A DNA stretch of 64,000 bases, from assembly GCA_028289135.1 (NCBI GenBank), contig JAQGGW010000005.1:2941-66940 (forward strand). Reading direction: 5' to 3'. Positions within the stretch are counted from its first letter, which is position 1. Every line of letters starts with the position of its first letter. This DNA is from Candidatus Saccharimonadota bacterium. Its GTDB lineage: Bacteria; Patescibacteriota; Saccharimonadia; Saccharimonadales; JACDBH01. The notes under the pieces were generated by a model. The model worked only from the letters and a program-made list of their open reading frames with translations, ran no database searches and was not told where the DNA came from. Shown piece after piece: positions 3,763-61,942 of the stretch. The position numbers and the translations under genes are program-made.

Positions 3763-4326
3763 ATGATGATTTTTGTTATTATCGCTATCGTTGTTGTCTT
3801 GGTGGCAGTATTTGCCGGCATGTATAACGGCCTTATTAAGCTAAATGTCCGTGCCGAAGAGGCCTGGAGCGACATTACCGTCCAAATGAAGCGCCGTTTG
3901 GATCTTATCCCAAACCTCGTAAACACCGTTAAAGGTTATGCAACTCACGAAAAGACCGTTTTTGAAGACGTAACCGCTGCCCGCAGCGCCATGGTTAACG
4001 CATCGGGTCCAGCCGACACTGCCAAGGCCGAAAACCAGTTCCAGACAGCCATGAAGAGCATCTTTGCTGTTGCCGAAGCTTACCCAGAGCTTAAAGCCAA
4101 CGAAAACTTCAAAGAACTCCAGGCCGAGCTTGTTGACACCGAAGACAAAATCCAGGCTTCACGCCGCTTTTATAACGGTGTTGTCCGTGACTTTAACACC
4201 AAGCGCAAAGTTTTCCCGACCAGCATTTTTGCCGGCATGCTTGGCTTTAACAAAGACCGTGAATTCTTTGATGTTGCAGAATCAGACCGTGCAGCCGTAG
4301 ACGCACCAGTAGCCGTTAATTTCTAG
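3763..4326 (+). CDS. lemA: LemA family membrane protein
   Basis: 187 aa with an N-terminal TM helix. Residues YNGLIKL..E.AWSDI....KRR.DLIPNLV match the LemA family pattern. Confidence 0.9.
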   Translation: MMIFVIIAIVVVLVAVFAGMYNGLIKLNVRAEEAWSDITVQMKRRLDLIPNLVNTVKGYATHEKTVFEDVTAARSAMVNASGPADTAKAENQFQTAMKSIFAVAEAYPELKANENFKELQAELVDTEDKIQASRRFYNGVVRDFNTKRKVFPTSIFAGMLGFNKDREFFDVAESDRAAVDAPVAVNF

Positions 4327-4352
4327 CACCTACCTAATTCCTGGAGACGTGA

Positions 4353-33839: not shown

Positions 33840-33848
33840 AATAAAACT

Positions 33849-34001
33849 ATGAACAAGAAGCTTTTGCCAATTCTGGTATCTCTCATGGCTATTGTTATAT
33901 TTTTTGGTGGTTTTTATTATTTTTACCACAGATCTCACCAATCTTGCGTGTCTTACTACGACAAAGACGGTAAACAACTGCTGTTTAAAGATTGCCGATA
34001 G
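33849..34001 (+). CDS. Possible 50-aa membrane peptide (below ORF cutoff)
   Basis: MNKKLLPILVSLMAIVIFFGGFYYFY... begins 10 nt after the PBP stop. No other support. Confidence 0.3.
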   Translation: MNKKLLPILVSLMAIVIFFGGFYYFYHRSHQSCVSYYDKDGKQLLFKDCR

Positions 34002-34037: not shown

Positions 34038-34065
34038 TAAAACAAAAAACACCTCGGAAGGTGTT
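34038..34065 (-). terminator. Intrinsic terminator for minus-strand transcription from the FAD oxidoreductase gene
   Basis: Stem AACACC/GGTGTT with a 6-nt loop. On the minus strand it is followed by TTTTTTGTTTT. Confidence 0.65.
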
Positions 34066-34275
34066 CGCGGTACTAGCTGGCTCGGCACGATTGTGGGCTT
34101 CTTTAGCAATGAATCCGCTTCTTTCGAAGTCGTCCTGTTATTTGCTAGTACATAAACATTATAAACCATAACCAGGCTGGTGTCAAACACTTTTTTAAAA
34201 ACTGAATGTGCTTCCGGTTTGAATATTTGAATGTTTACTTATATCAACATTATAGCTAAACAGCACAGTTTGACT

Positions 34276-35676
34276 TTAATCGACTATCCTTAATTTAGCG
34301 ATTCCTAAAACAGTTTTTATAACCCCGCGTCTTTTTTGAACTTTATATTTTTCATTGACTCGCGTTCTGTTGAAGATATCCGGTAAAGATGTAGCTTTAT
34401 ATTTTTTGCGGAGCTTGTCATACCAAGTTTTGTCATAGACTTTCCAGAATTCCTCATAAGAATAGTAGTTATGAGAGTAAAACCATTTTTTGCCACCTAG
34501 TTCGTTGGTTTTTGCTTCAATCTGACGGTTAGCAGCAACGAATTTTTCATAGGGCTCCACTCGAAGGCCGTAGACACCAAGATTAAATACTATGTCAGCA
34601 TCAATGCCATTACACTGTAGTGGCGAACGAGGTTCAGGCTTTATTGGGCAACCACCAAGCGGGTACATATTAAACTCTTTATCCATATAATCAAGGAATG
34701 GCACCATGCCACTTTCAGGTAGCATAATATCCTGGCATATGTAGGATTGGCTCGCCGCGCTTTCTTGCAATACCTGATATAGCTTTCTTGTTCGCAGCAA
34801 CGGATCAAATAGAAAGCGCATAATTCGATTGAAGGGAATATTATAATCTTTGAATCCAATTTCTGCTGCCCAAAACGCACCCCGATTAAACCGAAAGAGG
34901 TAGTCTTTAAGGGGAATGCTATCTGTTATTTGCATACCAGTGGCTGCAACTTCTTTAATATATAAAAAGTACCAATTATCTTGAGGGCGGCTAAATCGTA
35001 ATAATCGTCCCTGAATTTTATTTGTCATAGTACCGACAACAACAGCACCTCGGTCTTTGCTAAACATGTACCACTCAACAAAGTCAGTACCTAAATTGGC
35101 ATAATGCTTCATCATTTTTATACCTTCGGCGAAACTAGTGATTTGATAATGAGTAACGCTGACATATTTAGTTGCTGGTATGAGTTGTATTTCTGTAGCT
35201 GTAATTAATCCAAGCGAGCCATATGATCCAGCTGCACCATAAAATAGATCTGCGTGTTCTTGCGGAGAAGCCTTTACTAGTGAACCGTCTCCCAATATGT
35301 ACTCGATCCAGTTAGCTGTTTGGCTTACGCAGCCGTACTTATGGGATGATGTTTCGGCAGCTGCTCCTTGGATAGCGCCACCAATGGTAATACCCGGGAA
35401 CTCAGGCACAACTGGTGGTACGAGCCCGTGTTTGAGAGTAGCTTTTACGAGCTTGTCCATGGGGACGTTGGGCTCTACGATAACGGTTTGCTTCTCAATG
35501 TCTACAGAAATAACATTATTTAAATCGCTTACATCTACCATCTCGCTTCGTTTAAACGTGAGTACGCGTGTAGAGTTAGTCGAACCATGATAAACACGAA
35601 ATGGTGTTTTTTGAGAATAGTACTTTGCTACTTGGTTTTGTAAATTTTTAACCACGATCGCGTGTTTAGAAGTCAT
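34276..35676 (-). CDS. FAD-dependent oxidoreductase of the DHCR24 / DIMINUTO (sterol delta-24 reductase-like) family
   Basis: 466 aa. [50 protein letters not shown] and [20 protein letters not shown] line up with recalled DHCR24 segments. The gene is AT-rich. Confidence 0.85.
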   Translation of the reverse strand: [466 protein letters not shown]

Positions 35677-35730: not shown

Positions 35731-35754
35731 CTTGGTTGGGTATGAGGGATTCAG
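35731..35754 (-). repeat. Degenerate copy of the tRNA-Gln 3' end
   Basis: On the minus strand, GAATCCCTCATACCCAACCAAG versus the tRNA 3' end GAATCCCTCATCCCCAGCCAAG (20/22 identical). It lies immediately 3' of the intact tRNA. Confidence 0.6.
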
Positions 35755-35765: not shown

Positions 35766-35839
35766 TGGCTGGGGATGAGGGATTCGAACCCCCGATCTCG
35801 GAACCAGAATCCGATGCCTTACCACTTGGCCAATCCCCA
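35766..35839 (-). tRNA. tRNA-Gln (CUG), CCA encoded
   Basis: Reverse complement folds as acceptor TGGGGAT/ATCCCCA, anticodon arm TCGGA-TTCTGGT-TCCGA, T arm GGGGG-TTCGAAT-CCCTC, GCCA end. Confidence 0.9.
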
Positions 35840-35871: not shown

Positions 35872-36027
35872 ATTATTAAGAAGGGATTCGACCGACGTTC
35901 CGCCGGCCCGGAGCTTCTGCTTTGGTAACATGTTACCAAGTGAAGACTCCCTTGCAAAATGCCACAGGCATTTTTCACCCCGATCATGGAACCAGAATCC
36001 GATGCCTTACCACTTGGCCAATCCCCA
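35872..36027 (-). pseudogene. Disrupted second tRNA-Gln copy: intact 5' 50 nt, an ~84-nt structured insert at the T-arm, and a non-pairing 3' end
   Basis: 36027-35988 is identical to tRNA-Gln positions 1-40, and GATCGGGG is then shared. The insert carries hairpins at 35910-35950 and 35956-35974. A T-loop remnant GTCGAATCCCT sits at 35892-35882. The 3' sequence TCTTAAT cannot pair with TGGGGAT. Confidence 0.65.
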
Positions 36028-36131
36028 ATAAAAGCGGAAAACTCAAGTGATTGTAACAGATTAGGGGGCATTTTAACAGAGCTAAATGTTTATATACTTG
36101 ACGAACGGCTTTTGTAGTATATAATACAATA

Positions 36132-36416
36132 ATGCACGAATTTCAGCCAGTAACAGAAACAGCAGTTTTTATACGGACTGCCAATATAGCCTGTGCTGTC
36201 GGCCCACTAGCGTCTACAATACTTGCGCCAAGGCCAGGCACCGTAAGCTTTACCGACACATCAAACTGTTGCGAAGATTGCCCGGATATTAATGACAATC
36301 CGCCAAGCCAAAGCGAATGCCCAAATTTTGAGCTGGAAGCGGGCAGGTGGCCTATTTGTAAGCGCGAAGGCAACAGCGATGACATGATCGGCAAGTTTTT
36401 TGGATTTGGGAAGTAA
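36132..36416 (+). CDS. Hypothetical small Cys-rich protein (94 aa)
   Basis: ORF preceded by TTGACG-16 nt-TATAAT (36098-36125), with the ATG 6 nt after the -10 element. An antisense ORF of similar size exists, so coding status is uncertain. Confidence 0.4.
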   Translation: MHEFQPVTETAVFIRTANIACAVGPLASTILAPRPGTVSFTDTSNCCEDCPDINDNPPSQSECPNFELEAGRWPICKREGNSDDMIGKFFGFGK

Positions 36417-36488
36417 CCTACAACTACATTAGGGTAATCTAAATAAATATGGTATAATAAAAAAGATAATTAATCAGGATCTTTTATT

Positions 36489-36740
36489 ATGAGTATGGAC
36501 TTACGTTGTTTCAATGGTCAGCCTTCAGCAGATTCATCGTTTGTGGTAGAGCCTCATCCTAGTATTTACGGAGGGAAAGTGACGCGTGAAAGTATGCGTG
36601 CATTCAGAGTCGCAAACGGGCAACCCGAATCCCTTGGCTCACGCTCAGTAGATCTTGGCGCCATAGGTCAAGTTGCTGGAATGGATGCTGCTCCACAAAT
36701 TATAATCCCAGAAACTCCTCCAGCCCCTGAAATTGGCTAA
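36489..36740 (+). CDS. Hypothetical small protein (83 aa)
   Basis: ORF with an upstream TATAAT at about 36451 and a palindrome TTGGCTAATTTTAGCCAA across its stop. No homology recognised. Confidence 0.4.
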   Translation: MSMDLRCFNGQPSADSSFVVEPHPSIYGGKVTRESMRAFRVANGQPESLGSRSVDLGAIGQVAGMDAAPQIIIPETPPAPEIG

Positions 36741-36755
36741 TTTTAGCCAAGATAT

Positions 36756-36783
36756 TTGACAAGACAAAAATTAGGCGTACATT
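36756..36783 (+). promoter_or_regulatory. Sigma70-like promoter
   Basis: TTGACA (36756-36761), 16-nt spacer, TACATT (36778-36783). Confidence 0.45.
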
Positions 36784-36892
36784 GAAATATGTGAACAACC
36801 TAAACACAACACTAAAGGCGCTCGCGATTATTGTGGCCCCAAAGGGGAGTGTTTCTGGTTTGTAGCAAATAATTAATCAAGACAAACCAATC

Positions 36893-36925
36893 ACTTCCCG
36901 AGAGAAATCCGGGGAGTTTTTATTT
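36893..36925 (+). terminator. Intrinsic terminator or attenuator within the leader of the 36948 ORF
   Basis: 8-bp stem ACTTCCCG/CGGGGAGT (one G-U pair) with a 9-nt loop, followed by TTTTTATTT. The AAGGAG RBS and ATG follow directly. Confidence 0.5.
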
Positions 36926-36947
36926 GTCACAAAAGGAGATAAAAGAA

Positions 36948-37163
36948 ATGACAACAGCAGAAATGGGAACAGTAGGCGGAGTTGAACAAGCAGGTGCACA
37001 AAGAACAAGTGCCGTAAGTGCGGTATTACATTTCGCTGCGCGATTATTAAGCCCGCTTCCCGATGTCGCACCTGCGCCTGGTCAAAGTGAGCATTTTGGT
37101 CATTCTGATAAGAGAAATGATACGAACCCCCAATGGTCAACTCAGAATGGATATGTCGGTTAA
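36948..37163 (+). CDS. Hypothetical small protein (71 aa)
   Basis: AAAGGAG RBS lies 8 nt before the ATG at 36948. The track ORF begins 24 nt upstream. No homology recognised. Confidence 0.45.
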   Translation: MTTAEMGTVGGVEQAGAQRTSAVSAVLHFAARLLSPLPDVAPAPGQSEHFGHSDKRNDTNPQWSTQNGYVG

Positions 37164-41220: not shown

Positions 41221-41616
41221 ATGGGAACGACAGCAGATAAGAATAAAGCCGAAAATGAAGTGGTATTCCGCAACTTCAATGAACGTATGAATAAAGGTAT
41301 TCATAGTCTAAAAAAAATCGCTACCGAAGAAGGCCAGTTTACCGATGTGCCTGACCTTAAGAAGTCGCTTTATTACTGCTGTGAATGCGCCGACGAAAAC
41401 TGCAGGGATCGTATAAAGATTAGCTCAAGTACTTATGCAAAGCTGCATGGTAAGAATAACTCTTTTGTAATTATTCCTGGGCATAATGTAAAAGAAATTG
41501 AACGCGTAGTCCTTAGACGGCCAAATTACGAAGTTGTAGAAAAATATATTGAACCGTCAAAGTCTGTTAAAGGGCTTCATATTACTGATTTTGATGTCAA
41601 AAAGCTTAGGTCTTAA
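41221..41616 (+). CDS. Hypothetical protein with a CC.C....C cluster
   Basis: 131-aa ORF with cysteines in YYCCECADENC. No family recognised. Confidence 0.55.
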   Translation: MGTTADKNKAENEVVFRNFNERMNKGIHSLKKIATEEGQFTDVPDLKKSLYYCCECADENCRDRIKISSSTYAKLHGKNNSFVIIPGHNVKEIERVVLRRPNYEVVEKYIEPSKSVKGLHITDFDVKKLRS

Positions 41617-42494
41617 GCACTTATTGGTTTTTTTGCTGTAGTTTTTAACTCGCGACGTTTCCAATAATAGCGCACAGCCGCATAGCCGCCAACTGCGTAC
41701 AGCGCGCCGATGATTTCGTCGATTGCATAATGTTCGCCCATATAGACAGTGCCAAAAAAGATCAGTAACGGATAAATGCTGGCCGCGAGAGCCCATTTTT
41801 TACCGTATAGCTTATAGACAAACAATACCAAAAGCGTGGCATAGGCGGCGTGCAGTGAAGGCATGGCGGCAACCGGGTTGGGCGAAATTTTGTTGTAAAC
41901 ACTCGGGAAATCGTGGATGCCAAGCGCAAACCAAACATTGCTGGAAACACGCGTAATTGGAGCAATCAGTCCATTTTGGGCTGCCAGCCATGGCGGTGCG
42001 GCCGGGAAGAATAAAAAAGTAATAAAGCCGGCAAACGAAACTGTCAGGTAGGTGGTTATAAAGCGCCAATAGTGCTTTTCGCGGGTTTTCCAGATTAATA
42101 ACGCCAGGCCAATCGGCAGCACAAAATGGAGCATATAAGCCAGATAAAACACAAAGTCATACCACTGCACATGGCCGTGCCATAAGACGTTTTGCAGCAT
42201 CGCGGTTGGCAAACGTCCGCCAAACAAAAACTTGTCGGTGTTAATCAGGCTACCGTAATGCACGTGTTTGTTAAGTGTTGGCACAAGCCCGCGGAATGAT
42301 TCGTAGACCAACAATATTGCCACAAAAGGCACAAGTCTTTTTAAAGCCTGCAAACCTTGGCTAAAAGCCATAAAAATTAGTGTTACAAAAACGAGTAGTT
42401 TGTCGGGGGTGGGGAAGCTTGGTTCATGAATAAAAATACCAAGGCAAACAAGCGTGCCAATAATACCTATAATCTGGGATATTTTACGTTGCAT
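41613..42494 (-). CDS. PAP2-superfamily membrane protein (PAP2_3 / inositol-phosphorylceramide-synthase-like type)
   Basis: 293 aa, polytopic, with FPAAPPW and AAMPSLHAAYA motifs. Confidence 0.75.
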   Translation of the reverse strand: MQRKISQIIGIIGTLVCLGIFIHEPSFPTPDKLLVFVTLIFMAFSQGLQALKRLVPFVAILLVYESFRGLVPTLNKHVHYGSLINTDKFLFGGRLPTAMLQNVLWHGHVQWYDFVFYLAYMLHFVLPIGLALLIWKTREKHYWRFITTYLTVSFAGFITFLFFPAAPPWLAAQNGLIAPITRVSSNVWFALGIHDFPSVYNKISPNPVAAMPSLHAAYATLLVLFVYKLYGKKWALAASIYPLLIFFGTVYMGEHYAIDEIIGALYAVGGYAAVRYYWKRRELKTTAKKPISA

Positions 42495-47237: not shown

Positions 47238-48008
47238 ATGCTCTTAGCTATGTTTTTGGCGGCCGTCGGATTGAATCTTATTTTGTTTGTGCCGGCTTAT
47301 AGGTACAAGACTGATAAACTTACTGATATCTCCTATGCACTGTCTTTTGTTGTGCTCATTACGCTGGCGCTGGGCCAAAGCCGTTTTAAATGGGAAGATT
47401 TTTTGCTGGCGTTGATGATTTTCTGGTGGGTGGTGCGATTGGGCGGATTTTTGCTATTTCGTATCTGGAAAAAGGGCAAAGATAAGCGATTTGACGGCAT
47501 GCGTGAAAACCCCGTGAAATTTTTGCGTTTTTGGTTTTTTCAGGGAGTTACAGTTTTTGTTGTGTTGATCGGCGCGCTGGAATTTATGCATACAAACCGT
47601 CCGGTTTTTAACGTGCTCTCGGCCATTGGATTAGTTATATTTCTAAAAGGCTTAATAATCGAAGCGGTAGCGGATCTCCAAAAGTGGCAATTCTCCCAAG
47701 ACCCTAAAAACAAAGGTAAATGGATTGAAGCTGGGCTGTGGGGCATGTCGCGCCACCCGAACTATTTAGGCGAAATGCTGGTGTGGCTTGGGGTTTATCT
47801 ATATATTCTGCCAAGCCTGCATGGTTTGCAGTGGCTGATCGCGCTCATAAGCCCGGCCTATATTATTATTTTGCTAATGTATGTTAGCGGCATTCCGATC
47901 CTAGAAAAGTCAGCCGACAAAAAATGGGGGAGTAATAAAGATTACAACGCTTACAAAAAACGTGTGCCATTATTAGTGCCATGGACAAATCAACTTCGCA
48001 GCAAATAA
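47238..48008 (+). CDS. DUF1295 membrane protein (steroid 5-alpha-reductase / ICMT-like superfamily)
   Basis: 256 aa, polytopic, with the GLWGMSRHPNYLGE motif. Confidence 0.8.
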   Translation: MLLAMFLAAVGLNLILFVPAYRYKTDKLTDISYALSFVVLITLALGQSRFKWEDFLLALMIFWWVVRLGGFLLFRIWKKGKDKRFDGMRENPVKFLRFWFFQGVTVFVVLIGALEFMHTNRPVFNVLSAIGLVIFLKGLIIEAVADLQKWQFSQDPKNKGKWIEAGLWGMSRHPNYLGEMLVWLGVYLYILPSLHGLQWLIALISPAYIIILLMYVSGIPILEKSADKKWGSNKDYNAYKKRVPLLVPWTNQLRSK

Positions 48009-52608: not shown

Positions 52609-52611
52609 ATG
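52601..52611 (+). repeat. Left copy of an 11-nt direct repeat, AGGTAATTATG
   Basis: Identical 11-mer at 63248-63258. It overlaps the radC RBS and start codon. Confidence 0.3.
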
Positions 52612-53256
52612 AAGATATCAGAACTTGAGTTAATAGATCGCCCGCGCGAAAAACTTGCAGCAAAAGGTGTGAAGAATTTGTCGGACTTTGAGTTGCTCCA
52701 GTTAATTATCGGGAGCGGCGTATTTGGGGCAGATGTAACAGTTATTGCAAAAGAAATTAAAAAACTTCTAGATAAATATGGTTATTTAGTTACCCTAGAT
52801 CAGCTGAAGGATATTAAAGGCGTCAGCCTTGCAAGCGCAAGTAAAATTCTTGCTACTTTTGAACTAAGTCAGCGATATACAGTGCAAGATGGGGTTCAAG
52901 TTAAATCCGTTGAAGATGTTTTGCCGCTCTTAAGCTACATAAGAGATAAAAAGCAGGAATATTTTGTTTGCATAACACTCGATGGTGCAAATAGAGTTAT
53001 TGCAACTCGCACTATTACAATTGGCACACTTACTAATTCGCTAGTCCATCCGCGTGAAGTTTTTGCCGACGCTATAACTGATCGTGCGGCGAGCATAATA
53101 ATTGCCCATAATCATCCAGGTGGAAGCCTGAACCCAAGTGACGCAGATGACGATGTCACCATAAGCATAAAATCTGCAGGAAGCATTCTTGGCATTCAAC
53201 TTTTAGATCATCTTATAATTACGAAGCTTGACTACAAAAGCATTATAAATGGTTAA
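52609..53256 (+). CDS. radC: RadC-like JAB/MPN domain protein
   Basis: 215 aa with the HNHPGG JAMM motif and an N-terminal HhH-like region. Confidence 0.88.
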   Translation: MKISELELIDRPREKLAAKGVKNLSDFELLQLIIGSGVFGADVTVIAKEIKKLLDKYGYLVTLDQLKDIKGVSLASASKILATFELSQRYTVQDGVQVKSVEDVLPLLSYIRDKKQEYFVCITLDGANRVIATRTITIGTLTNSLVHPREVFADAITDRAASIIIAHNHPGGSLNPSDADDDVTISIKSAGSILGIQLLDHLIITKLDYKSIING

Positions 53257-53300
53257 ATCATAAGCTATATTACACTGTCAAAAAGTGTTATAATTAAAGC

Positions 53301-53495
53301 ATGAAAGCGCCATCCAGCACTCGTAGAAAGAAAGCAGTTTCTGCTGCTGTTTGGTCTGTTAAAGCAGAGGGCCTTCGGCCTACAAAGGCAGCCTCAAAGA
53401 GCCTTGGATCTTACGCATCAGGCAAAATCTCTGCCAAACAATTACGTGCGGAAACAGCACGCAACGTAAAGAACCTGCTTCGAACATCCAAATAG
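53301..53495 (+). CDS. VbhA-type antitoxin of the Fic toxin
   Basis: 64 aa containing SVKAEG, which fits the (S/T)xxxE(G/N) inhibitory motif. Its stop lies 1 nt before the fic ATG. Confidence 0.75.
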   Translation: MKAPSSTRRKKAVSAAVWSVKAEGLRPTKAASKSLGSYASGKISAKQLRAETARNVKNLLRTSK

Positions 53496-53496
53496 T

Positions 53497-54117
53497 ATGG
53501 CCTATATAATAAAGAACGATCCGTATATTGATCCGGAGTTTGGGGTGCTGCGCAACAAATTGGGTATTATTAGTCAGAAAACTCTCGATGAGGTGGAATT
53601 TACAATTACTTCAACTGAGATCGCGATTTTAGAAGAGAATATTATTAGGGGTGAATTCGATTTAAATCATTTAAAAGCAGTGCACAAAAAGATATTTGGT
53701 GATCTGTATGAGTGGGCTGGCGAAATACGGACAGTGGATATGGGCAAAGATGATACGCTTTTTGCTCATGCAGAATATATTGTGCCGAGTGCAAATGTAT
53801 TATTTGCAGAACTCAAAAATGAAAATTTTTTAAAGGGTCTTAAAAATCCAGAATTTGTAGAGCGGTTTGCGCACTATTATTCTGAAGTTAACATCCTGCA
53901 TCCTTTTCGGGAGGGCAATGGCCGAGCCCAGCGAGCGTTCTTTACACTTTTGGCAAGATATTCTGGCTGGCACGTAGCATGGGACCAAATGATTCAGGAC
54001 GACAATATAGCCGCTAGTGTTGCGGCATATAATGGCGACGAAGAGCCATTGGTTGAGATTTTACTTCCTTTGTTCGAATGGGTAGATGAGGACTATTGGA
54101 ATCTTGGCTTGGCATAG
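53497..54117 (+). CDS. fic: Fic-domain protein (AMPylase-type toxin)
   Basis: Intact HPFREGNGRAQR active-site motif; 206 aa. Confidence 0.9.
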   Translation: MAYIIKNDPYIDPEFGVLRNKLGIISQKTLDEVEFTITSTEIAILEENIIRGEFDLNHLKAVHKKIFGDLYEWAGEIRTVDMGKDDTLFAHAEYIVPSANVLFAELKNENFLKGLKNPEFVERFAHYYSEVNILHPFREGNGRAQRAFFTLLARYSGWHVAWDQMIQDDNIAASVAAYNGDEEPLVEILLPLFEWVDEDYWNLGLA

Positions 54118-54164
54118 TAATGAGTTCCACTATAGGGGTGAAGAGAGTATAATTCTCAGTAAGT

Positions 54165-56573
54165 ATGACCAAAAAAGAAGCTTATTCCCGGGTGGTGATT
54201 GATCGCAAGCTGCGTGAAGCTGGTTGGGATATTGAAGACGAAGAGCAAGTTGTCTTTGAAGATCATAGCACCGCCGGCAGAGCTGACTATGTATTAAAAG
54301 ATTCAAAGGGCATGCCCATAGCGCTTATTGAGGCAAAAGCACCTGAGATTGACCCATATAATGCTAAAAAACAGGCTCGTGATTACGTTGACCTTCAATA
54401 CAAACAGATTGATTTTATATATTTGGCCAACGATCAAAAAATATATTTTTGGGATCTGGGGCATGGCGATGCAGTGCCGTCAGACAGCGGCTTTTTCTCG
54501 CAAAGCGATTTAGAACGAAGACGCGCATCCGGCCGCGTAAATAATGTTAGCCCATTGCTCCAAGAAGCTATAGATACAGATTATTTTAAAGATATTACCG
54601 ATCAGATAAAACTTCGTGATTACCAACTAGACGCATGGAATGCTATTGCAACCAATTATGACGAAAAGCAAAAACGTGCCTTCTTGCTTGAGATGGCAAC
54701 CGGCACGGGCAAAACCGTTCTGGCAGCCTTAATTATTAGCAGATTCTTGCGTACTAATAATGCAAGCCGAGTACTATTTATTGTTGATAGACAGTCATTG
54801 GCAAACCAAACAAAAGGTACTTTTGAACAGCTTCTTCGTAATATTTCCACAGTTGGGGTTTATTGGGGCGGCAAAAGGCAAAACCTTACAGGCAGCAATG
54901 TAGTTATCGCAACTATTCAGTCCCTCGGGCTACATGGTAAAAAAGACTTTACGCCAGGGGCGTTTGATTTAATTATTCACGACGAAGCTCACAGAAGTAT
55001 TTATACGCCTGAGGCGAGGGCAGCGGTTGATCATTTTGTGGGTGCGACAAAAATCGGTCTTACGGCCACGCCTCGTGATTTCTTAAAAAATATTGATATT
55101 GAACAGCTTAGCAATGACGACCCACGTGCTTTAGAGCGCCGCATTCAACGCGATACATATCGTTACTTTGGCTGTGAAAATGGTGTGCCAACATTTCGAT
55201 ATACAATTCAGGACGGCTCAAAAGCTGGCTATTTAATTGAGCCGGTTTACCGTAAGGCAAACACCTCGCTTACGTACCAAGCCCTGAGTGATCAAGGCAT
55301 AACAAAGTTAGATGATGTAGAGCTAGAAGAAGGCACAAGCCTTAAGATTCGTGACTTAGAGCGAAAAGTATTCTTTCCGAAGCGCAATCGTGCAATGATG
55401 CAAGAGTTTTTAGACTACGCAGATTATGCGCCAAACGGTGAAGTAGGCAAGACTTTGATATTTGCAGTTTCGCAGAATCACGCACTTGCTTTAACAAAAA
55501 TTCTGAACGAATTAACGCCAGAATATAACGGCCGCTTTGCCGAAGTTATTACAAGCCGCGTGCATGGGGCACATGAGATAGCCAAAGATTTTGCAAACCT
55601 TAATAACAAACTGCCACGCGTTGCCGTTACTGTTGATATGCTTGCGACAGGCTTTGACGCGCCAGAAATTCTGAACCTTGTCATGGCACGTGCAATTTAT
55701 GACCCTACAACCTATCAACAAATGAAGGGCCGCGGTACACGGCTATGTCCAGAAGTTAAAAAGGAGCGCTTCGTAATTCATGACTTTGCCGGTGTCATTG
55801 ATTACTTTGCTGAAAAGCATGACTGGGATGTTCCGCTGAATGCTCCAGCTAATAAAGTTTACGGTACGGCTGTAGAATCAGTAGAAGAAACAATGCCTAT
55901 GATTCGTGGATCTGCAATTGGTGAGCCGATACAAGAGTATGTTCGTGCGAGTGATATACCTACAAGCAATATGCAAGATTTTATCGCTACACGTGACGTG
56001 GTGCAGTACGGTCTTGGCGAGGGCGATGTTGTTGACAGGAATATGTACCAGGACGAATGGACCAAAGCGGTTCATAACTATGTAAAAGAAAATCGAGAAA
56101 AAGTCGAGCAAGTTATTGACGATCCAGAGCAACTAGACGAGCTCATGGTAGATATTAACCGCGAACTTTTGGACCGACCAAAATATTACTTTAATGAAGA
56201 GACCTTACAGCAAAGTCACCGAGTTATAGCTGGCGTAAGAGATTTTTTCTTGGCGGCACTCGGTAAGACAAAATTACCAACACGTGATGAACAGCTAGCG
56301 GAGTTTAAGCAAGGCCTCGTGAATAAATTTGCCGACAGCGAAGGTGGCGCATCACAGCGTCGCACGCAAATGGTCAAATATTTGGCGGATCACCTTATGG
56401 GTGACCATAAACTTGTTTTAGCAATACGGCTGGAGGGTAACTTATCATTTTTAGCTAAACCAGAATTTGCACAGGCATATACAACCCGCGACTGGCTTGC
56501 AGAATTTAAAGACAAAGATGAACTTTTGGAATTAATTAGTGATATAGCTGTAAACCCGCTACTAAAGGTTTAA
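54165..56573 (+). CDS. hsdR: Type I restriction enzyme R subunit
   Basis: N-terminal PD-(D/E)xK-like GRADYVL...IALIEAKA, helicase motif I MATGTGKT and motif II HDEAH; 802 aa. Confidence 0.9.
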   Translation: MTKKEAYSRVVIDRKLREAGWDIEDEEQVVFEDHSTAGRADYVLKDSKGMPIALIEAKAPEIDPYNAKKQARDYVDLQYKQIDFIYLANDQKIYFWDLGHGDAVPSDSGFFSQSDLERRRASGRVNNVSPLLQEAIDTDYFKDITDQIKLRDYQLDAWNAIATNYDEKQKRAFLLEMATGTGKTVLAALIISRFLRTNNASRVLFIVDRQSLANQTKGTFEQLLRNISTVGVYWGGKRQNLTGSNVVIATIQSLGLHGKKDFTPGAFDLIIHDEAHRSIYTPEARAAVDHFVGATKIGLTATPRDFLKNIDIEQLSNDDPRALERRIQRDTYRYFGCENGVPTFRYTIQDGSKAGYLIEPVYRKANTSLTYQALSDQGITKLDDVELEEGTSLKIRDLERKVFFPKRNRAMMQEFLDYADYAPNGEVGKTLIFAVSQNHALALTKILNELTPEYNGRFAEVITSRVHGAHEIAKDFANLNNKLPRVAVTVDMLATGFDAPEILNLVMARAIYDPTTYQQMKGRGTRLCPEVKKERFVIHDFAGVIDYFAEKHDWDVPLNAPANKVYGTAVESVEETMPMIRGSAIGEPIQEYVRASDIPTSNMQDFIATRDVVQYGLGEGDVVDRNMYQDEWTKAVHNYVKENREKVEQVIDDPEQLDELMVDINRELLDRPKYYFNEETLQQSHRVIAGVRDFFLAALGKTKLPTRDEQLAEFKQGLVNKFADSEGGASQRRTQMVKYLADHLMGDHKLVLAIRLEGNLSFLAKPEFAQAYTTRDWLAEFKDKDELLELISDIAVNPLLKV

Positions 56574-56577
56574 AACA

Positions 56578-59043
56578 ATGGCAGAATTTAATACCGCAGA
56601 CCTACACAAACAAGTTGACCGTCTTATGGATATTTTCTTTGGGGCGGGTGTTGCAAGCCACCCAACAATTATTGAACAGATTAACTACCTGCTATTTATG
56701 CGCGCACTTTCTTATAAGGATGACGAATATCTTGCACTTGGCATTAATGATGCCGACACGATTGTTTTTGACGGTGAGCTTGAAAAATATCGCTGGGAAA
56801 ACTTACTGAGTCTAAATGCTGAAGCATTGTTTGTAGCGCTTGAAGATTGCTTTCGTAAAATTCCAGAAAGCACAAACAATAAAACGGTTCGTTTAGTTTT
56901 TCGAAATGCGCATATAAAACTGTTTGATAAGCCGAGTCTGCGGGTTGTAGTGCATGAAATTGATGCCTTTGCCAAACTGATGGACGAAGGAGAACATGAA
57001 GGTAAACACGATATTTTCGGTGATACATATGAATACTTGTTGAGTAAGCTTGCGCAAGCCGGTACTTCTGGCCAGTTCAGAACGCCGCGCCACATTATTG
57101 AGTTTCTTGTAGCAGTAGTCGCGCCTAAAAAAGGCGAAACTATTCTCGACCCAGCCGTCGGCACGGCTGGTTTTTTAGTGAAAGCTTTTGAATATTTGCG
57201 AAAAGAATACACATCGCCGGAACAGGCAGCCACGGGTGGTGCATTCGATAAGCTAAGCTCCAAAGAACATACATTTTTGTACGAACATACCTTTACTGGC
57301 TTTGACAGCGACGAAGACATGATTAAATTTGGCATGATGAACCTGTACCTTCACGGCTTGCAGAATGCGCATCTTGTGCGCCAAAACACACTTACCGACA
57401 CTGCTGGTAATCGCGATAAATACGATATTATTCTGGCCAACCCGCCTTTTAGTGGCAAGATTGACCGCGACAGCGTGGCTCAAGAGCTGCAAATGAATAC
57501 AGGAGCAACGGAAGTTCTATTTTTGCGTTATATGCTAGAGCATTTGACCGACAGTGGCCGTATGGGTGTGATAGTGCCAGAGGGCGTGATTTTTAATGGC
57601 TCAAGTGCACATGTTAAAATTCGCAAAATGCTTATTGAAAGTGGGCTTTGGTGTGTAGTGAGCCTCCCAGCGGGGGTCTTTAACCCATATGCGGGTGTTA
57701 AAACATCTATAGTTTTTATAGACAAATCCCTAAACAAAAATACTGAAATATTATTTGCCAAAGCTGAATCTGATGGTCTTAGTTTTGGTGCGCAGCGTCG
57801 CCCTATAATAAGAAACGATATACCGGGTATTTTGAGTGGTATAAAAAACCTTAAAGCGGGTATACCTTCAGAGTCTATCCATGTGCATAGTGTTAACAGA
57901 GATATGATTATAAATAGCAAAGACTATAACCTAAATGGTGATCGCTATAAAACTGTTGGCACTAACATGCTTTCGCAATGGACGCATACCGAGCTTAGTA
58001 ATGTGGCAAGAATTGAAAAGGGGAAATCATCTTCTACTAAAACTGAGCCTGGAGAGTACCCCCTAGTTCTTACAGCAAAAAATAGTAAAACTTCTAAAAA
58101 TTATGATTTTGAGGGCGAAGCAGTTCTTGTGCCACTTATCTCTGCGACAGGCCACGGTAAATCTGATATTAAAACAATTCATTATCAGAAGGGTAAGTTT
58201 GCTGCAGCAAATTTACTAGCAGTAGTTATGCCAGATCCTAATAAATGTGATGCAAAATATCTGCGTTTGTATTTAGATTATAAGAAAGATTACATCGCTA
58301 AAACTAAAATGTCTGGAGCAGCTAACAGGAGTATGAAGTTAGAGGATTTACACGATGTTCCTATCCCTCTACCGACTTTAGACATTCAGCATCAAATTGT
58401 ATCTGAAATTGATGGTTATCAAAAAATTATTGATGCTGCTAAAATAATTGTCAAATTTTATAAACCAGCTGTCAAAATGAATCCAGACTGGGATATCTCT
58501 AGCCTCGAGGATGTCTTTGATATGGTAAATGGCAGAGCTTTTAAAACATCGGAATGGTCGGATGCAGGAATTCCTATAATCCGGATCGCTAACCTAAACG
58601 GGGAATCCGCGAAGTATAACTATTACTCCGGTAATTATGACGACAAAACGCTTGTAGAACCTGGCCAACTGCTATTTTCTTGGTCTGGTACAAAAGGCAC
58701 ATCCTTCGGACCACATCTATGGCAGAGAAAAGCTGGGCTTTTAAATCAGCACATATTCAAGCTTAATCCAAAAGGAATTCCTATTGATTTGACGTTCGCC
58801 TACCACTATTTGAAAGCAATCGTGCCTGAAATAGAAGCAAAAGCACATGGATCAGGCGGCTTAGTACATATTACGAAGGGAGAACTTGGCAAGTTTAAAA
58901 TCCCTACTCCTGAGATTAGTGAACAAAGAAAAATAGTTGCCGCACTCGAAACAGAGCAGCAACTTATAAATGCAAACAAAACACTAATCGAAACATTCCA
59001 GCAAAAAATTAAAGATAAAATCGCAGAAATTTGGGGTGAATAA
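56578..59043 (+). CDS. hsdM: Fused Type I methyltransferase-specificity polypeptide (HsdM domain plus a complete two-TRD HsdS domain)
   Basis: N-terminal HsdM_N-like region, SAM motif ILDPAVGTAGFL and catalytic NPPF. Residues from about 470 to 821 contain two TRD-like blocks, each followed by a helical spacer (LDIQHQIVSEID..., ISEQRKIVAALE...). Confidence 0.85.
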   Translation: MAEFNTADLHKQVDRLMDIFFGAGVASHPTIIEQINYLLFMRALSYKDDEYLALGINDADTIVFDGELEKYRWENLLSLNAEALFVALEDCFRKIPESTNNKTVRLVFRNAHIKLFDKPSLRVVVHEIDAFAKLMDEGEHEGKHDIFGDTYEYLLSKLAQAGTSGQFRTPRHIIEFLVAVVAPKKGETILDPAVGTAGFLVKAFEYLRKEYTSPEQAATGGAFDKLSSKEHTFLYEHTFTGFDSDEDMIKFGMMNLYLHGLQNAHLVRQNTLTDTAGNRDKYDIILANPPFSGKIDRDSVAQELQMNTGATEVLFLRYMLEHLTDSGRMGVIVPEGVIFNGSSAHVKIRKMLIESGLWCVVSLPAGVFNPYAGVKTSIVFIDKSLNKNTEILFAKAESDGLSFGAQRRPIIRNDIPGILSGIKNLKAGIPSESIHVHSVNRDMIINSKDYNLNGDRYKTVGTNMLSQWTHTELSNVARIEKGKSSSTKTEPGEYPLVLTAKNSKTSKNYDFEGEAVLVPLISATGHGKSDIKTIHYQKGKFAAANLLAVVMPDPNKCDAKYLRLYLDYKKDYIAKTKMSGAANRSMKLEDLHDVPIPLPTLDIQHQIVSEIDGYQKIIDAAKIIVKFYKPAVKMNPDWDISSLEDVFDMVNGRAFKTSEWSDAGIPIIRIANLNGESAKYNYYSGNYDDKTLVEPGQLLFSWSGTKGTSFGPHLWQRKAGLLNQHIFKLNPKGIPIDLTFAYHYLKAIVPEIEAKAHGSGGLVHITKGELGKFKIPTPEISEQRKIVAALETEQQLINANKTLIETFQQKIKDKIAEIWGE

Positions 59044-59045
59044 AC

Positions 59046-60710
59046 ATGAGAATAACTAGAATTTGCATCAAAAATTTTCGATCTATAGAGGATGTAACTA
59101 TTGAAACAAATAATTTGAATGTACTCGTAGGTCAAAATAATCATGGCAAAACTAATTTTTTAACTGCGATTAATTGGTTTTTTTATGGCGGAAGTACTGA
59201 ACTTCACAAGAGAAAGGGTACTGGATCAGGTAACCCATATATTGAGATATGTTTCGACGATGTGCAGGGGGCATTGAAGAAGATGAAGAACGAGAAAAAT
59301 AGCAAAACCCTATCTTCAAAATTAGAAAATGTAGAAGAAGTTTCTCTGGTAAGGACTGTAGACGAGGAGGGTAAAACCAATCGAAGAATTGTTAATAGAG
59401 AAACTCGTGAACTTAGTGACCCAGGTACGGGATTTGACAAGGCCCTAAACGATTTCTTGCCTAACCTAGAGTTTGTACAAACTGAAAATAATTTACGAGA
59501 TATTTTAAAATACGGTAAAACTACTCAAATTGGTACCATGCTTTCGGGAGTCTTGAACGAGATACTGGCTAGCGGCGATCCAGCTTACAAAAGATTTGTA
59601 GATGAATTTTATACCTTATTTGGATCAAAAGAATCAAAAATTTACGATGAACTTAGAAAACTTGCTGAGAGCGTGGAGCTATATTTAAAAAAGCAGTTTC
59701 CTGAAACCACAAAAGTTGAGTTTGAGGTCAAGAATCCTGAACTTACAGATCTGTTCAAAAATTTTTCCGCGAAAGTAGATGATGGGGTTGTGACTGAAGC
59801 TTATGAAAAAGGCGATGGAATGCAACGAGCTTTAATGCTTGCGATAATTCAAACCTTTGCAGATTACAGGAGAAAAAATGCAGATATAAAGAACTTTATT
59901 TTTCTAATTGATGAGGGTGAGCTGCATCTTCACCCTGGTGCACAAAGGCATTTAAAGTCTGCACTTGAAGATCTTGCAAAGGATGGAGATCAGATATTTT
60001 TGACTACCCACTCCTCTGTGCTTATATCTGACGATAGCTCAGGTGACAAACAAAGTACTTTCAAAGTTGAAAAGTTCGAGGACGGAGTAACGAATATTGA
60101 TATACAAAATGAATACGCTAAGAAAAACATTATATACGAACTTCTTGGAGGTAGCCCTACCGATTTGCTAATGCCGTCGAATTTTATAATTGTTGAAGGC
60201 TCTTCAGAAGTTGATTTTTTAAGCAAGGTAATCGAACGACATTATCCAGAGAAAAAGTCCCTTAAGATCCTTCCCGCAAGAGGAGACTTTTATCAATCAG
60301 TACAACTCATGAATTCATTAGAGAAATTATTTACACCGCTGTCAGAGAGTATATATAAAGGTCATTTTCAAGTTCTTATTGATAAAAGTAAGCTCACAGA
60401 TGCGCAATTTCAAGAACTCCTTACTAAAGTCCCTAATTTCGATAAGGACTCCCAGTTTCATGAGCTTAGTCTTGGATCCCTTGAAGAATATTATCCTATC
60501 AAAAAAGCTGACCAATGTGCGGACTCATCAAATAGCAGATTATTTATGGAAAAATGGAAACTGTCATCAGCCGAAGTCTCCGCGCTTAGTTCTAAACAGA
60601 AGAGCCGTATGTCAAAAATTATTGGTGATAATATCACTAAAGATCAATTTGAAAACGAAATGCCATTAATGTTAAAGGTTTTAAATATGGCCTACGAGAA
60701 GAAATTATGA
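59046..60710 (+). CDS. ABC-type ATPase with a C-terminal Toprim/DUF4435-like region (OLD-family nuclease or fused PARIS AriA-AriB-like)
   Basis: MRITRICIKNFRSIED..., Walker A GQNNHGKTN, Walker B FLIDEGELHLHP, and a C-terminal IIVEGSSEVDFL motif. Confidence 0.8.
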   Translation: MRITRICIKNFRSIEDVTIETNNLNVLVGQNNHGKTNFLTAINWFFYGGSTELHKRKGTGSGNPYIEICFDDVQGALKKMKNEKNSKTLSSKLENVEEVSLVRTVDEEGKTNRRIVNRETRELSDPGTGFDKALNDFLPNLEFVQTENNLRDILKYGKTTQIGTMLSGVLNEILASGDPAYKRFVDEFYTLFGSKESKIYDELRKLAESVELYLKKQFPETTKVEFEVKNPELTDLFKNFSAKVDDGVVTEAYEKGDGMQRALMLAIIQTFADYRRKNADIKNFIFLIDEGELHLHPGAQRHLKSALEDLAKDGDQIFLTTHSSVLISDDSSGDKQSTFKVEKFEDGVTNIDIQNEYAKKNIIYELLGGSPTDLLMPSNFIIVEGSSEVDFLSKVIERHYPEKKSLKILPARGDFYQSVQLMNSLEKLFTPLSESIYKGHFQVLIDKSKLTDAQFQELLTKVPNFDKDSQFHELSLGSLEEYYPIKKADQCADSSNSRLFMEKWKLSSAEVSALSSKQKSRMSKIIGDNITKDQFENEMPLMLKVLNMAYEKKL

Positions 60711-61900: not shown

Positions 61901-61942
61901 GTCAGTTTGACAGTATACGGACTCTCATGATCTACTTAAGGC

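Follow-up and report, generated by a model that had tools for sequence, protein, structure and literature searches.

An anchorless DHCR24-family flavoenzyme, probably acting on a non-sterol isoprenoid, encoded by a resident gene of a Saccharimonadota bacterium

Introduction

The closest characterized relatives of the enzyme described here are the delta(24)-sterol reductases (EC 1.3.1.72), known as DHCR24 or seladin-1 in animals and as DWF1 or DIMINUTO in plants. They share with it an N-terminal FAD domain of the PCMH type, and the C-terminal substrate domains of the two are homologous. DHCR24 is an ER membrane protein with an N-terminal membrane anchor of ~60 residues. The nearest members of the VAO/PCMH superfamily with solved structures are cytokinin oxidase (CKX) and mycobacterial DprE1, which likewise have a two-domain fold. 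VAO-family enzymes are often oxidases. CKX and DprE1 both act on isoprenoid-bearing substrates; in cytokinins, the isopentenyl group is identical to the dimethylallyl unit at the delta-24 terminus of sterols.

Two further systems are relevant. Pezizomycotina fungi encode FAD-binding proteins named “Delta(24)-sterol reductase-like” (for example, Plectosphaerella KAH6666548.1, Aureobasidium THX05141.1 and Trichoderma PTB69308.1), and Desmond and Gribaldo reportedly noted the extra DHCR24 homologues of this group in 2009. Coxiella burnetii provides a parallel of a different kind, that of sterol-modifying enzymes in a host-associated bacterium that does not synthesize sterols. Its sterol reductases are an ERG4-type delta-24(28) reductase and a DHCR7-type enzyme, however, and these are polytopic ERG4/ERG24 membrane reductases unrelated to FAD/PCMH enzymes (PMC2817430).

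How does the Saccharimonadota locus compare with these systems? An earlier note on the 64,000-nucleotide stretch of DNA analysed here (the window) described its gene at 34276-35676 as a eukaryote-type sterol reductase homologue, acquired horizontally at a tRNA gene. The gene does encode a member of the DHCR24 family. It is an ordinary, resident, single-copy member of that family among housekeeping genes, and neither a recent island nor a recent import from eukaryotes.

The gene and its product

The gene is an open reading frame without interruption that starts with ATG, and it is the one copy of a DHCR24-like gene in the window. A homology search returned a metagenome-assembled genome (MAG) protein with 100% identity, [quoted passage not shown]. 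The gene and the parts of its product are laid out as follows.

34276..35676, minus strand: complete gene for the anchorless DHCR24/DIMINUTO-like FAD oxidoreductase, 466 aa (stop codon 34276-34278)
35269..35643, minus strand: N-terminal PCMH-type FAD-binding domain, residues 12-136 (Pfam FAD_binding_4, PF01565)
34345..35139, minus strand: C-terminal cap or substrate domain, approximately residues 180-444, from BLASTP and HHalign alignment to DHCR24
34279..34344, minus strand: conserved basic C-terminal tail, residues 445-466 (consensus RRGAxKTxLGRAKLRIxD in alignment A1)

FAD_binding_4 is the sole Pfam domain found in the protein (59.3 bits, cutoff 26.4, E 4.3e-16). It holds the loop H30-G31-S32-T33-x-S35-T36, whose residues occupy invariant columns of alignment A1. 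No Pfam model matches the C-terminal domain, which aligns by sequence only with proteins of the DHCR24 family.

The resemblance to DHCR24 is real and extends over the full length of the protein, including the C-terminal substrate domain, as BLASTP and profile-profile comparison agree. In BLASTP, the protein is 30% identical over 450 aa to the DHCR24 of Lycaon pictus (P0303; E 3e-62, 199 bits), with residues 5-437 paired with residues 67-509. When the Saccharibacteria family is compared with 11 metazoan DHCR24s in HHalign, the probability is 100% (E 6e-67, 426 columns), and residues 5-444 pair with residues 63-512. The three sequence blocks on which the earlier note had based the resemblance all appear in the BLASTP alignment to P0303, one of them paired with REEFWEMFDGSLYHRLRER of DHCR24. 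Motifs common to the two proteins include E-S/T-S-S-x-K-x-G, QD-x-x-x-P, YP...CP and EEFW...Y...LR. In the C-terminal domain, the shared invariant columns of alignments A1 and A2 are Q315-D316-x-x-L-P320, Y338-P339...C343-P344, Y400 and E409-F410-W411...Y419...R423. The human DHCR24 reference was confirmed by its 96-97% identity with mammalian DHCR24 clusters. It carries the expected wild-type residues at positions mutated in human desmosterolosis; three of these positions align with conserved residues here (R103/R37, E191/E125 and Y471/Y400, human/here).

There are also clear differences. Both alignments start at DHCR24 residue 63-67, and the ~60-residue membrane anchor is missing from the bacterial protein. 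Indeed, a Kyte-Doolittle scan found no transmembrane-grade hydrophobic stretch anywhere in the 466 residues, the maximum 19-residue score being 1.17 versus 1.99 for human DHCR24. The loop reads HGSTNSTR here and TGRPGWLTVSLR in DHCR24. Identity to DHCR24 is only 30%, against at least 64% between one metazoan DHCR24 and another. 

In the basic C-terminal tail, DSSP predicts a helix at residues 448-456 of the AlphaFold2 model. The tail may be a peripheral membrane-binding segment.

The AlphaFold2 model (mean pLDDT 89.7, pTM 0.89) has the two-domain fold of the VAO/PCMH flavoprotein superfamily, with an FAD-binding domain and a cap domain. Its top PDB fold matches in Foldseek are DprE1 and CKX at TM ~0.65, with the matches to the two enzymes at TM 0.6-0.7 over ~450-480 columns (E ~1e-20). 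No solved DHCR24 structure in the PDB matched the protein, either by sequence or by fold, so the active site is read from alignments.

Genomic context

The gene lies beside a tRNA gene, as the earlier note had observed. The tRNA gene is a same-strand upstream neighbour that belongs to the context rather than to the enzyme, and it is separated from the start codon by 89 nt. With permissive thresholds, tRNA was the only Rfam family detected between 33.8 and 37.3 kb. Two candidate signals were read from the sequence of the intervening DNA; a consensus scan reported neither.

35766..35839, minus strand: tRNA-Gln(CTG), found by ARAGORN (Rfam tRNA, 63.3 bits)
35717-35691, minus strand: candidate hairpin and T-run, AAGACTT-CTTACC-AAGTCTT-TTTTGTTT
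35691-35683, minus strand: TGgTATCAT, resembling an extended -10 element, 6 nt before the ATG

The hairpin is weak, but together with the T-run it probably ends the tRNA transcript. The TGgTATCAT element could mean that the mRNA of the gene is leaderless.

Is the gene part of an island? It had been described as AT-rich against core genes of about 50% GC, but this contrast did not hold up. Its GC content of 40.5% (z = -1.2) and GC3 of 36.1% (z = -1.15) compare with means of 45.8% (SD 4.2) and 46.0% (SD 8.7) for the 57 genes of the window, among which it has the eighth lowest GC. Thus, it is on the low side but is no outlier. The clearly low-GC block of the window is a defence island at ~54-63 kb. 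Between 28.9 and 51.7 kb, the genes with Pfam annotation are housekeeping genes or small hypotheticals, and there is no integrase or transposase among them. Two partial copies of tRNA-Gln are present. One, a 22-nt copy of its 3' end at 35731-35752, separates the tRNA from the gene; the other, a 51-nt copy from the 5' part at 35978-36028, is upstream of the tRNA. A search of the whole window found no copy distal to the gene, meaning that the repeats do not bracket it. Adjacency to tRNA-Gln was not seen in 15 homologous loci. Nor is the gene confined to this genome, since at least 37 GTDB loci labelled Saccharibacteria carry homologues. The proposal of a horizontally acquired island at the tRNA is therefore not supported, given the normal composition, the lack of a mobility gene and of bracketing repeats, and the place of the gene in a Saccharibacteria clade with a bootstrap of 85.

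The neighbouring genes have housekeeping functions (SAH hydrolase, PfkB, SpoU, a PBP transpeptidase, Sua5 and SodC). The earlier note was right that other lipid-modifying genes occur in the same genome. The gene at 41613-42494 matches PAP2_3 in Pfam (E 3e-31), and that at 47238-48008 matches DUF1295 (E 5e-61) with weak additional matches to Steroid_dh and ERG4_ERG24; it is the only gene of the window with any likeness to those two families. No window gene scanned against Pfam matched a sterol-synthesis family.

The gene has no conserved operon partner that points to a pathway. Among the 146 immediate neighbours at 75 GTDB loci, no more than five share any one Pfam family. All-versus-all clustering of 801 proteins encoded within ~5 kb at 84 loci recovered only generic recurrent families, namely ABC ATPases (10/84), two-component histidine kinases or response regulators (6/84) and EamA proteins (4/84). 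Synteny is absent with the locus of an 83%-identical homologue (L006) and with seven other loci (L007-L013). There is weak residual synteny with the locus of a 62%-identical homologue (L001), in the form of DUF1801 and glyoxalase genes within 6 kb. The contexts of two outgroup representatives (P0203 and P0264) gave no functional clue.

Family distribution and phylogeny

The earlier note had called the family eukaryote-type and sporadic in bacteria, and the distribution of its members speaks against this. There are more than 120 clusters (at 90% identity) of relatives 50-80% identical to the protein. At 50% identity, 561 clusters match at E<=1e-30, and the best 150 of these all score at least 225 bits, above the 199 bits that genuine DHCR24 gives in BLASTP. 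In GTDB species representatives, a scan limited by sequence pattern recovered 230 loci. By label, the best 80 of the 230 comprise 37 Saccharibacteria and 21 members of other CPR phyla, along with 11 unnamed bacteria, 2 archaea and 9 others. The anchorless branch has a broad but patchy distribution in Patescibacteria (CPR); with just 230 loci from this pattern-limited scan, the majority of CPR species may be without the gene. Besides many CPR phyla, the branch extends to MAGs labelled as DPANN and Asgard archaea, to Legionella and, in the form of an extra paralogue, to Pezizomycotina fungi. Homologues are automatically named “delta24-sterol reductase” in JGI and UniRef.

A neighbour-joining (NJ) tree with bootstrap, from our own numpy implementation, groups the protein with its 83%-identical homologue (bootstrap 100) within a clade of 27 Saccharibacteria sequences (bootstrap 85). 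Canonical DHCR24 stands apart from this protein, which branches with CPR, DPANN and fungal paralogues, but the deep nodes, on which the placement of the anchorless branch relative to canonical DHCR24 and the fungal clade depends, have supports of 0-50. The protein does not fall inside the canonical animal and plant DHCR24/DWF1 clade; the human sequence is far off in the same tree, whose deep topology is poorly supported. The earlier note had named in advance the findings that would count against it: a place in a broad bacterial clade, no special affinity to DHCR24, and normal composition. A broad bacterial clade and normal composition were indeed found, whereas affinity to DHCR24 exists.

Saccharibacteria sequences are split over several separate clades of the tree. 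Because of this, and because synteny is lacking even with the 83%-identical homologue, gene transfer between CPR lineages is likely, and the word “vertical” therefore applies only inside the local clade.

Both the HGSTNSTR loop and the C-terminal tail are also found in the fungal proteins, and their full-length identity of 42-45% places them nearer to the bacterial protein than any canonical DHCR24. They differ in being eukaryotic and in their length of ~490-540 aa with insertions; some are fused, reaching 1441 aa in Lineolata. A homologue on a 7.5-kb contig labelled “Propionibacteriales” (L070) was also used as a query, and its named matches were only CPR- and Asgard-labelled proteins. The Asgard-labelled MAG proteins are ~50% identical to this CPR-like family member. 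The contig may be a mis-binned CPR fragment.

Possible functions

What reaction might the enzyme catalyze? We estimate a probability of roughly 0.6 that it is a long-resident, stand-alone FAD flavoenzyme of an anchorless, prokaryote-centred branch of the DHCR24 family that likely reduces a C=C bond of a non-sterol isoprenoid. Judging from its sequence, the enzyme most likely performs FAD-dependent redox chemistry, probably the reduction of a C=C bond, at a prenyl-type terminus. The protein would be a soluble or peripheral cytoplasmic enzyme with the two-domain VAO/PCMH fold. Enzyme-bound FAD would be reduced by NAD(P)H, as in DHCR24, and the reduced FAD would pass a hydride to a trisubstituted C=C bond in a dimethylallyl-type prenyl group at the end of the substrate. 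Polyprenyl-phosphate carriers, isoprenoid lipids or quinones scavenged from a host, and other prenylated metabolites are candidate substrates. A non-sterol substrate is most likely because CPR bacteria are not known to make sterols and because no sterol-pathway gene was found among the scanned window genes. Reduction is favoured over oxidation only as a probability: VAO enzymes are often oxidases, so the sequence does not decide between the two.

A direct alternative is that the gene encodes a sterol delta-24 reductase of eukaryotic origin, obtained by horizontal transfer at a tRNA-Gln island, with desmosterol-type sterols from a host or the surroundings as its substrates. The full-length homology with its retained core motifs is consistent with this, as are the automatic names of homologues. 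The gene starts just 89 nt past the tRNA, the duplicated tRNA-Gln fragments record past recombination there, GC is somewhat low, and the nearest eukaryotic relatives, from Pezizomycotina, are 42-45% identical. The protein nevertheless sits inside a large CPR clade and not among eukaryotes, and more than 150 clusters (50% identity) outscore canonical DHCR24, which is only 30% identical. The locus shows neither an integrase nor bracketing repeats nor outlier composition, and the ER-type membrane anchor is missing. The Coxiella precedent, to which the earlier note had appealed, involves the wrong family, being of the ERG4/DHCR7 type. The ecology also fits poorly. Cultured Saccharibacteria grow on Actinobacteria, for which sterol synthesis is not known, and many members of the DHCR24-like family come from groundwater CPR. 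We consider this reading improbable.

Two other readings draw on the relatives with solved structures. In one, the enzyme is cytokinin-oxidase-like and would attack isopentenyladenine or similar prenylated purines, such as those from i6A-tRNA turnover, oxidizing their N6-isopentenyl side chain. Maize cytokinin oxidase 2 is indeed the best sequence match in the PDB (E 9.5e-17), the top fold matches include CKX structures, and the side chain of cytokinins has the dimethylallyl unit that also forms the sterol delta-24 terminus. There is also a possible precedent in Mycobacterium tuberculosis Rv3719, which is annotated as “diminuto-like”. CKX activity is the hypothesized function of Rv3719, a putative CKX homologue that adjoins a cytokinin-binding protein, but the recombinant protein could not be produced and the activity was not shown (PMC11925245). 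In the other reading, the enzyme resembles DprE1 or a sugar-lactone oxidase of envelope biogenesis; its target would not be a C=C bond, and it would oxidize a sugar lactone or a sugar linked to polyprenyl phosphate. DprE1 provides the best NCBIfam match (NF053785, 69.9 bits) and the top Foldseek PDB matches, and a PBP transpeptidase gene lies nearby. For both enzymes, however, the FAD domain is the sole part matched by sequence (E 1e-12 to 1e-16); identity in structural alignments is 15-18%, and the substrate domains cannot be aligned from their sequences. The resemblance to CKX is limited to residues 76-210, Pfam finds no Cytokin-bind domain, and HHalign shows the C-terminal domain to be of the DHCR24 type. 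A search from the actinobacterial-labelled homologue gave only CPR and archaeal named matches, and did not connect Rv3719 with the DHCR24-like family. We therefore regard a CKX-like role as unlikely. The NF053785 score compares with a cutoff of 500 and covers only residues 46-191, within the FAD domain; the substrate domain aligns with DHCR24 and not with DprE1, and no DprE2-like partner or arabinan genes recur beside homologues. A DprE1-like role is highly unlikely.

C=C reduction on a non-sterol isoprenoid thus stands as our preferred reading. Literature searches found nothing linking the DHCR24-like family to CPR bacteria and nothing joining “sterol reductase” with Saccharibacteria or Patescibacteria. 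The Southlakia genetics paper makes no mention of sterol, FAD, lipid, isoprenoid or oxidoreductase.

Implications

What does the finding mean for these organisms? For the locus at 34276-35676 itself, the message is modest, in that the gene is an ordinary resident family member and not an island. For the family, the consequences are broader. The anchorless CPR branch is large and unstudied, and its substrate is probably not a sterol. Two database habits are corrected: the naming of anchorless family proteins as delta24-sterol reductases, and the reading of the anchorless family as a eukaryote-to-bacterium transfer. The spread of the family over CPR, DPANN- and Asgard-labelled MAGs, Legionella and Pezizomycotina bears on the origin of eukaryotic DHCR24.

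CPR genomes are ~1 Mb in size, and the membrane lipids of these bacteria are thought to be host-derived. A well-conserved, anchorless DHCR24-like enzyme that keeps the active-site scaffold of a sterol side-chain reductase, in lineages with no known sterol synthesis, is a concrete, cloneable candidate for CPR lipid tailoring, and it shares the window with PAP2_3 and DUF1295 genes. A bolder proposal, which we still think doubtful, is that the anchorless branch represents an undescribed lipid-editing enzyme of ultra-small episymbionts (CPR, possibly DPANN). Such an enzyme would act on isoprenoids scavenged from a host, or on polyprenyl carriers made by the cell itself, by saturating or isomerizing their terminal prenyl unit, and the branch would also be the prokaryotic source of eukaryotic DHCR24 and of the Pezizomycotina paralogues.

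Relationship to DHCR24

We place the window protein, with a probability of about 0.9, in a DHCR24-like family of FAD oxidoreductases resident in the Candidate Phyla Radiation (CPR). The earlier note had recognized a likeness to DHCR24, and its observation as a whole was largely right. All three sequence blocks that it quoted are present in the BLASTP alignment with Lycaon pictus DHCR24 (P0303), which pairs window residues 5–437 with DHCR24 residues 67–509 at 30% identity over 450 aa (199 bits, E = 3e-62). With a human DHCR24 reference sequence, 449 aa align at 30% identity (E = 2e-63). This reference is 96–97% identical to delta(24)-sterol reductase clusters of other mammals, and has the expected wild-type residue at each of six desmosterolosis positions. 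Comparison of 26 Saccharibacteria homologues with 11 metazoan DHCR24s using HHalign gave a probability of 100% (E = 6e-67, 426 columns). Because the alignments run along the catalytic length, the homology takes in the C-terminal substrate domain, a region with no sequence match from Pfam or solved structures. The only Pfam domain is an N-terminal, PCMH-type FAD_binding_4 (residues 12–136), and PDB sequence matches are limited to residues ~46–210, the best being maize cytokinin oxidase 2 and DprE1. The protein is predicted to adopt a two-domain VAO/PCMH fold, based on a confident AlphaFold2 model (pLDDT 89.7, pTM 0.89).

Residues that are invariant in the family and shared with DHCR24 include E108, within an E-S/T-S-S-x-K-x-G motif; E125 (human E191); Q315-D316…P320; Y338-P339…C343-P344; Y400 (human Y471); and E409-F410-W411, Y419 and R423. 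There are also differences. The N-terminus of the window protein aligns at DHCR24 residue ~63–67, and its maximum 19-residue hydropathy is 1.17, whereas that of human DHCR24 is 1.99; the scan found no transmembrane-grade segment. With this late start and no such segment, the protein lacks the ER membrane anchor and is soluble or peripheral. A conserved HGSTNSTR loop stands where DHCR24 has TGRPGWLTVSLR, and there is a conserved basic C-terminal tail, containing a predicted helix, that could bind membranes.

Genomic context

The gene is intact and follows a tRNA gene flanked by partial copies of itself:

34276–35676 (−): DHCR24-like ORF, ATG start, 466 aa
35731–35752 (−): 22-nt copy of the tRNA-Gln 3' end, 2 mismatches, 13 nt downstream of the tRNA
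35766–35839 (−): tRNA-Gln(CTG), called by ARAGORN and Rfam
35978–36028 (−): 51-nt copy of the tRNA-Gln 5' part, 96% identical, 188 nt upstream of the tRNA
36132–37163 (+): three small ORFs of 94 aa (Cys-rich), 83 aa and 79 aa, between the tRNA-Gln scars and the glyoxalase gene
Low-coordinate neighbors: SAH hydrolase, PfkB kinase, SpoU methylase, DUF1801, PBP transpeptidase
High-coordinate neighbors: the three small ORFs, glyoxalase, Sua5/YrdC, SodC, ATP-grasp enzyme, DUF998, PAP2_3, MgsA, BipA, Zincin_1, DUF1295, MetK

The start codon lies 89 nt beyond the 3' end of the tRNA on the shared strand, a position that the earlier note had read, together with AT-richness, as that of an island. The evidence says otherwise: composition is ordinary, the neighbors are housekeeping genes, and no repeats bracket the gene. 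Its GC content is 40.5% (GC3 36.1%), as compared to means of 45.8% (SD 4.2) and 46.0% (SD 8.7) for the 57 window genes, which makes it the 8th lowest in GC (z ~ −1.2); the “about 50%” taken as the core norm holds only for the GC-richest housekeeping genes. A Pfam scan found no integrase or transposase among the neighbors. The upstream partial copy lacks the 3' acceptor strand and is followed by an ~85-nt insert with hairpins and a T-arm-like GGTCGAATCCCTTC (~35879–35892, −); only the intact tRNA was called by ARAGORN and Rfam. These recombination scars resemble what is left of a tandem duplicate after decay, or remnants of an old att site. Both are upstream of the DHCR24-like start, and there are no further copies in the window, leaving the gene unbracketed. 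tRNA-Gln adjacency was not seen at 15 homologous loci.

In contrast, a block at ~54–63 kb is clearly low in GC (36–43% per 1-kb bin) and is a defense island:

52609–53256: RadC, preceding the island
53497–54117: Fic, preceding the island
54165–56573: HsdR, type I restriction enzyme
56578–59043: HsdM-HsdS fusion, type I restriction-modification
59046–60710: OLD-family ATPase-nuclease
Between the OLD and PDC-S14 genes: 397-aa ORF, no family assigned
61943–62779: PDC-S14 candidate defense protein

It is this defense/accessory block (52609–62779), and not the DHCR24-like gene, whose composition is atypical for the window.

Two further features lie near the gene. Just downstream, at ~34040–34186 (−), is a perfect sigma-70 consensus (TTGACA-17-TATAAT, 12/12), after which come a ~105-nt stretch folding with a closing stem (z = −1.7) and a strong hairpin with a T-run (34066–34047). 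This element may be a small RNA or, alternatively, a bidirectional terminator that also serves a 50-aa membrane-peptide ORF picked out by eye on the + strand (~33847–34000). Rfam returned nothing for it, even at E ≤ 1, and the closest homologous locus does not conserve it. On the other side, the 94-aa ORF is preceded by a promoter-like TTGACG-16-TATAAT (36098–36125); none of the three small ORFs has a Pfam match.

The DHCR24-like gene has no operon partner. No Pfam family recurs more than five times among 146 immediate neighbors at 75 loci, and clustering of 801 neighbors from 84 loci returned only generic families. The two other lipid-modifying genes that had been named are real, PAP2_3 at 41613–42494 (−; E = 3e-31) and DUF1295 at 47238–48008 (+; E = 5e-61); they sit amid housekeeping genes and are normal in GC (45.8% and 43.6%). 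One Moraniibacteriota locus (L082) has a DUF1295 gene (4059–4784) 216 nt upstream of its DHCR24-like gene on the same strand, a possible linkage seen in this single case.

Distribution and phylogeny

Bacterial homologs had been described as sporadic, which is not so. The window protein is 100% identical to the MAG-derived [quoted passage not shown], which assigns the window to a CPR (Patescibacteria) member. More than 120 clusters (90% identity) of full-length relatives are each 50–80% identical to the protein; those with names belong to Saccharibacteria, Saccharimonadales or Patescibacteria, and many of them are called “delta24-sterol reductase” by JGI. Clustering the library at 50% identity left 561 representatives at E ≤ 1e-30, the best 150 scoring 225–547 bits, all above the 199 BLASTP bits of genuine DHCR24. 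Among the representatives that carry names are Vogelbacteria, a Patescibacteria MAG, a Nanohaloarchaea MAG, Legionella busanensis and, among fungi (Pezizomycotina), Aureobasidium, Plectosphaerella, Aplosporella, Trichoderma and Lineolata.

A scan of GTDB (one genome per species, two peptide patterns) found 230 loci, a lower bound. The best 80 comprise 37 labeled Saccharibacteria, 21 with other CPR labels (Paceibacterota, Doudna-, Kaiser-, Davies-, Lipton-, Magasanik-, Levy-, Nomura- and Berkelbacteria, Moraniibacteria, Parcubacteria, Minisyncoccia and unspecified “Patescibacteria group”), 11 unnamed bacteria, 2 archaea (including a Woesearchaeota MAG) and 9 others, the last labeled Gammaproteobacteria, Propionibacteriales, Solirubrobacteraceae, Myxococcota, Acidoferrum, Pristimantibacillus and FCPU426. 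Some of these nine MAGs are probably mis-binned. The “Propionibacteriales” locus (L070; JBBSHN010000104.1, 7.5 kb) may be CPR sequence that was binned into the genome of an actinobacterial host, rather than carrying an actinobacterial gene: searching with its CPR-like copy, the named matches were CPR proteins and two labeled Heimdallarchaeota/Hodarchaeales, 51–52% identical to it. Branch members also occur in Heimdallarchaeota-, Hodarchaeales-, Nanohaloarchaea- and Woesearchaeota-labeled MAGs (proteins P0515, P0534 and P0138; loci L072 and L084); these may be true archaeal genes, transfers or binning errors. The family is patchy, since 230 loci, even as a lower bound, is small relative to CPR diversity.

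In a neighbor-joining tree (191 sequences, 435 HMM-aligned columns, 100 bootstrap replicates), the window protein pairs with an 83% identical GTDB relative (L006; bootstrap 100), within a clade whose 27 members are without exception Saccharibacteria-labeled or unnamed (bootstrap 85). This nesting does not support the import from eukaryotes that had been suggested. Other Saccharibacteria copies form separate clades amid other CPR phyla, and some genomes have two paralogs (L012 and L060; L076 and L077). Synteny is absent from the 83% identical homolog and seven further close ones, with weak co-location of DUF1801 and glyoxalase at the locus of a 62% identical homolog only. Given the patchiness and missing synteny, we regard the family as a long-resident accessory CPR family rather than a core gene, and exchange among CPR lineages is probable.

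The fungal sequences fall next to one another, all on the same side of the tree. Five uncharacterized Pezizomycotina proteins (P0125, P0128, P0129, P0144, P0146) are 42–45% identical to the window protein, far closer than canonical DHCR24, and match the “additional DHCR24 homologues” that Desmond and Gribaldo noted (PMC2817430). Their similarity suggests an old inter-domain transfer, with no direction implied. The Lineolata paralog is fused into a larger protein of 1441 aa. Separately, metagenomic proteins of ~890–916 aa (P0122, P0133, P0136, P0140, P0180) consist of two complete tandem DHCR24-like units; in the tree, Legionella busanensis groups with the first copies, and the second copies cluster among themselves. 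Both groups are placed, weakly, near human DHCR24. Human DHCR24 itself is distant from the window protein and joins weakly with Legionella and these tandem proteins. Deep nodes have support of 0–50, and neither the root nor the fungus–bacterium direction is read from the tree.

Possible function

We found no literature linking the anchorless family to CPR bacteria; with no operon partner either, functional inference rests on homology. DHCR24 is an FAD enzyme in which NADPH reduces the terminal -CH2-CH=C(CH3)2 of the sterol side chain, and the window protein has the same active-site scaffold. Neither CPR bacteria nor the Actinobacteria that host cultured Saccharibacteria are known to make sterols. 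Given that scaffold and no known sterol synthesis in these organisms, we propose a non-sterol isoprenoid, whose terminal prenyl group would undergo flavin-mediated reduction; isomerization or oxidation there is possible. Reduction of a C=C bond in such a substrate is a tentative assignment, at less than even odds. A rival, a true sterol reductase acting on acquired sterols, is improbable.

The solved structures nearest to the model are DprE1 and cytokinin oxidases (TM 0.6–0.7), enzymes that also handle isoprenoid-bearing substrates. DprE1 is the top NCBIfam model, at 69.9 bits versus a cutoff of 500, and all NCBIfam matches are sub-threshold and restricted to the FAD domain; DprE1- or lactone-oxidase-like activity is very unlikely. 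Cytokinin-oxidase-like activity is unlikely too. By analogy, it would have a parallel in Mycobacterium tuberculosis, where Rv3719 was chosen as a cytokinin oxidase/dehydrogenase homolog and adjoins a cytokinin-binding protein (PMC11925245); the named matches in the L070 search, all CPR or Asgard-labeled, gave no link from Rv3719 to this branch. The precedent claimed from Coxiella belongs to other families, its sterol reductases being ERG4- and DHCR7-type (PMC2817430), polytopic membrane enzymes that share no relationship with FAD-dependent DHCR24 proteins. Where published work discusses DHCR24 in bacteria, the homolog concerned comes from Methylococcus and other sterol producers (PMC2817430; PMC4919349).

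Within the DHCR24 family, the gene belongs, as an ordinary member, to a CPR-centered variant that lacks an anchor and is uncharacterized. Experiments on how episymbionts tailor lipids or isoprenoids could reasonably target its product.
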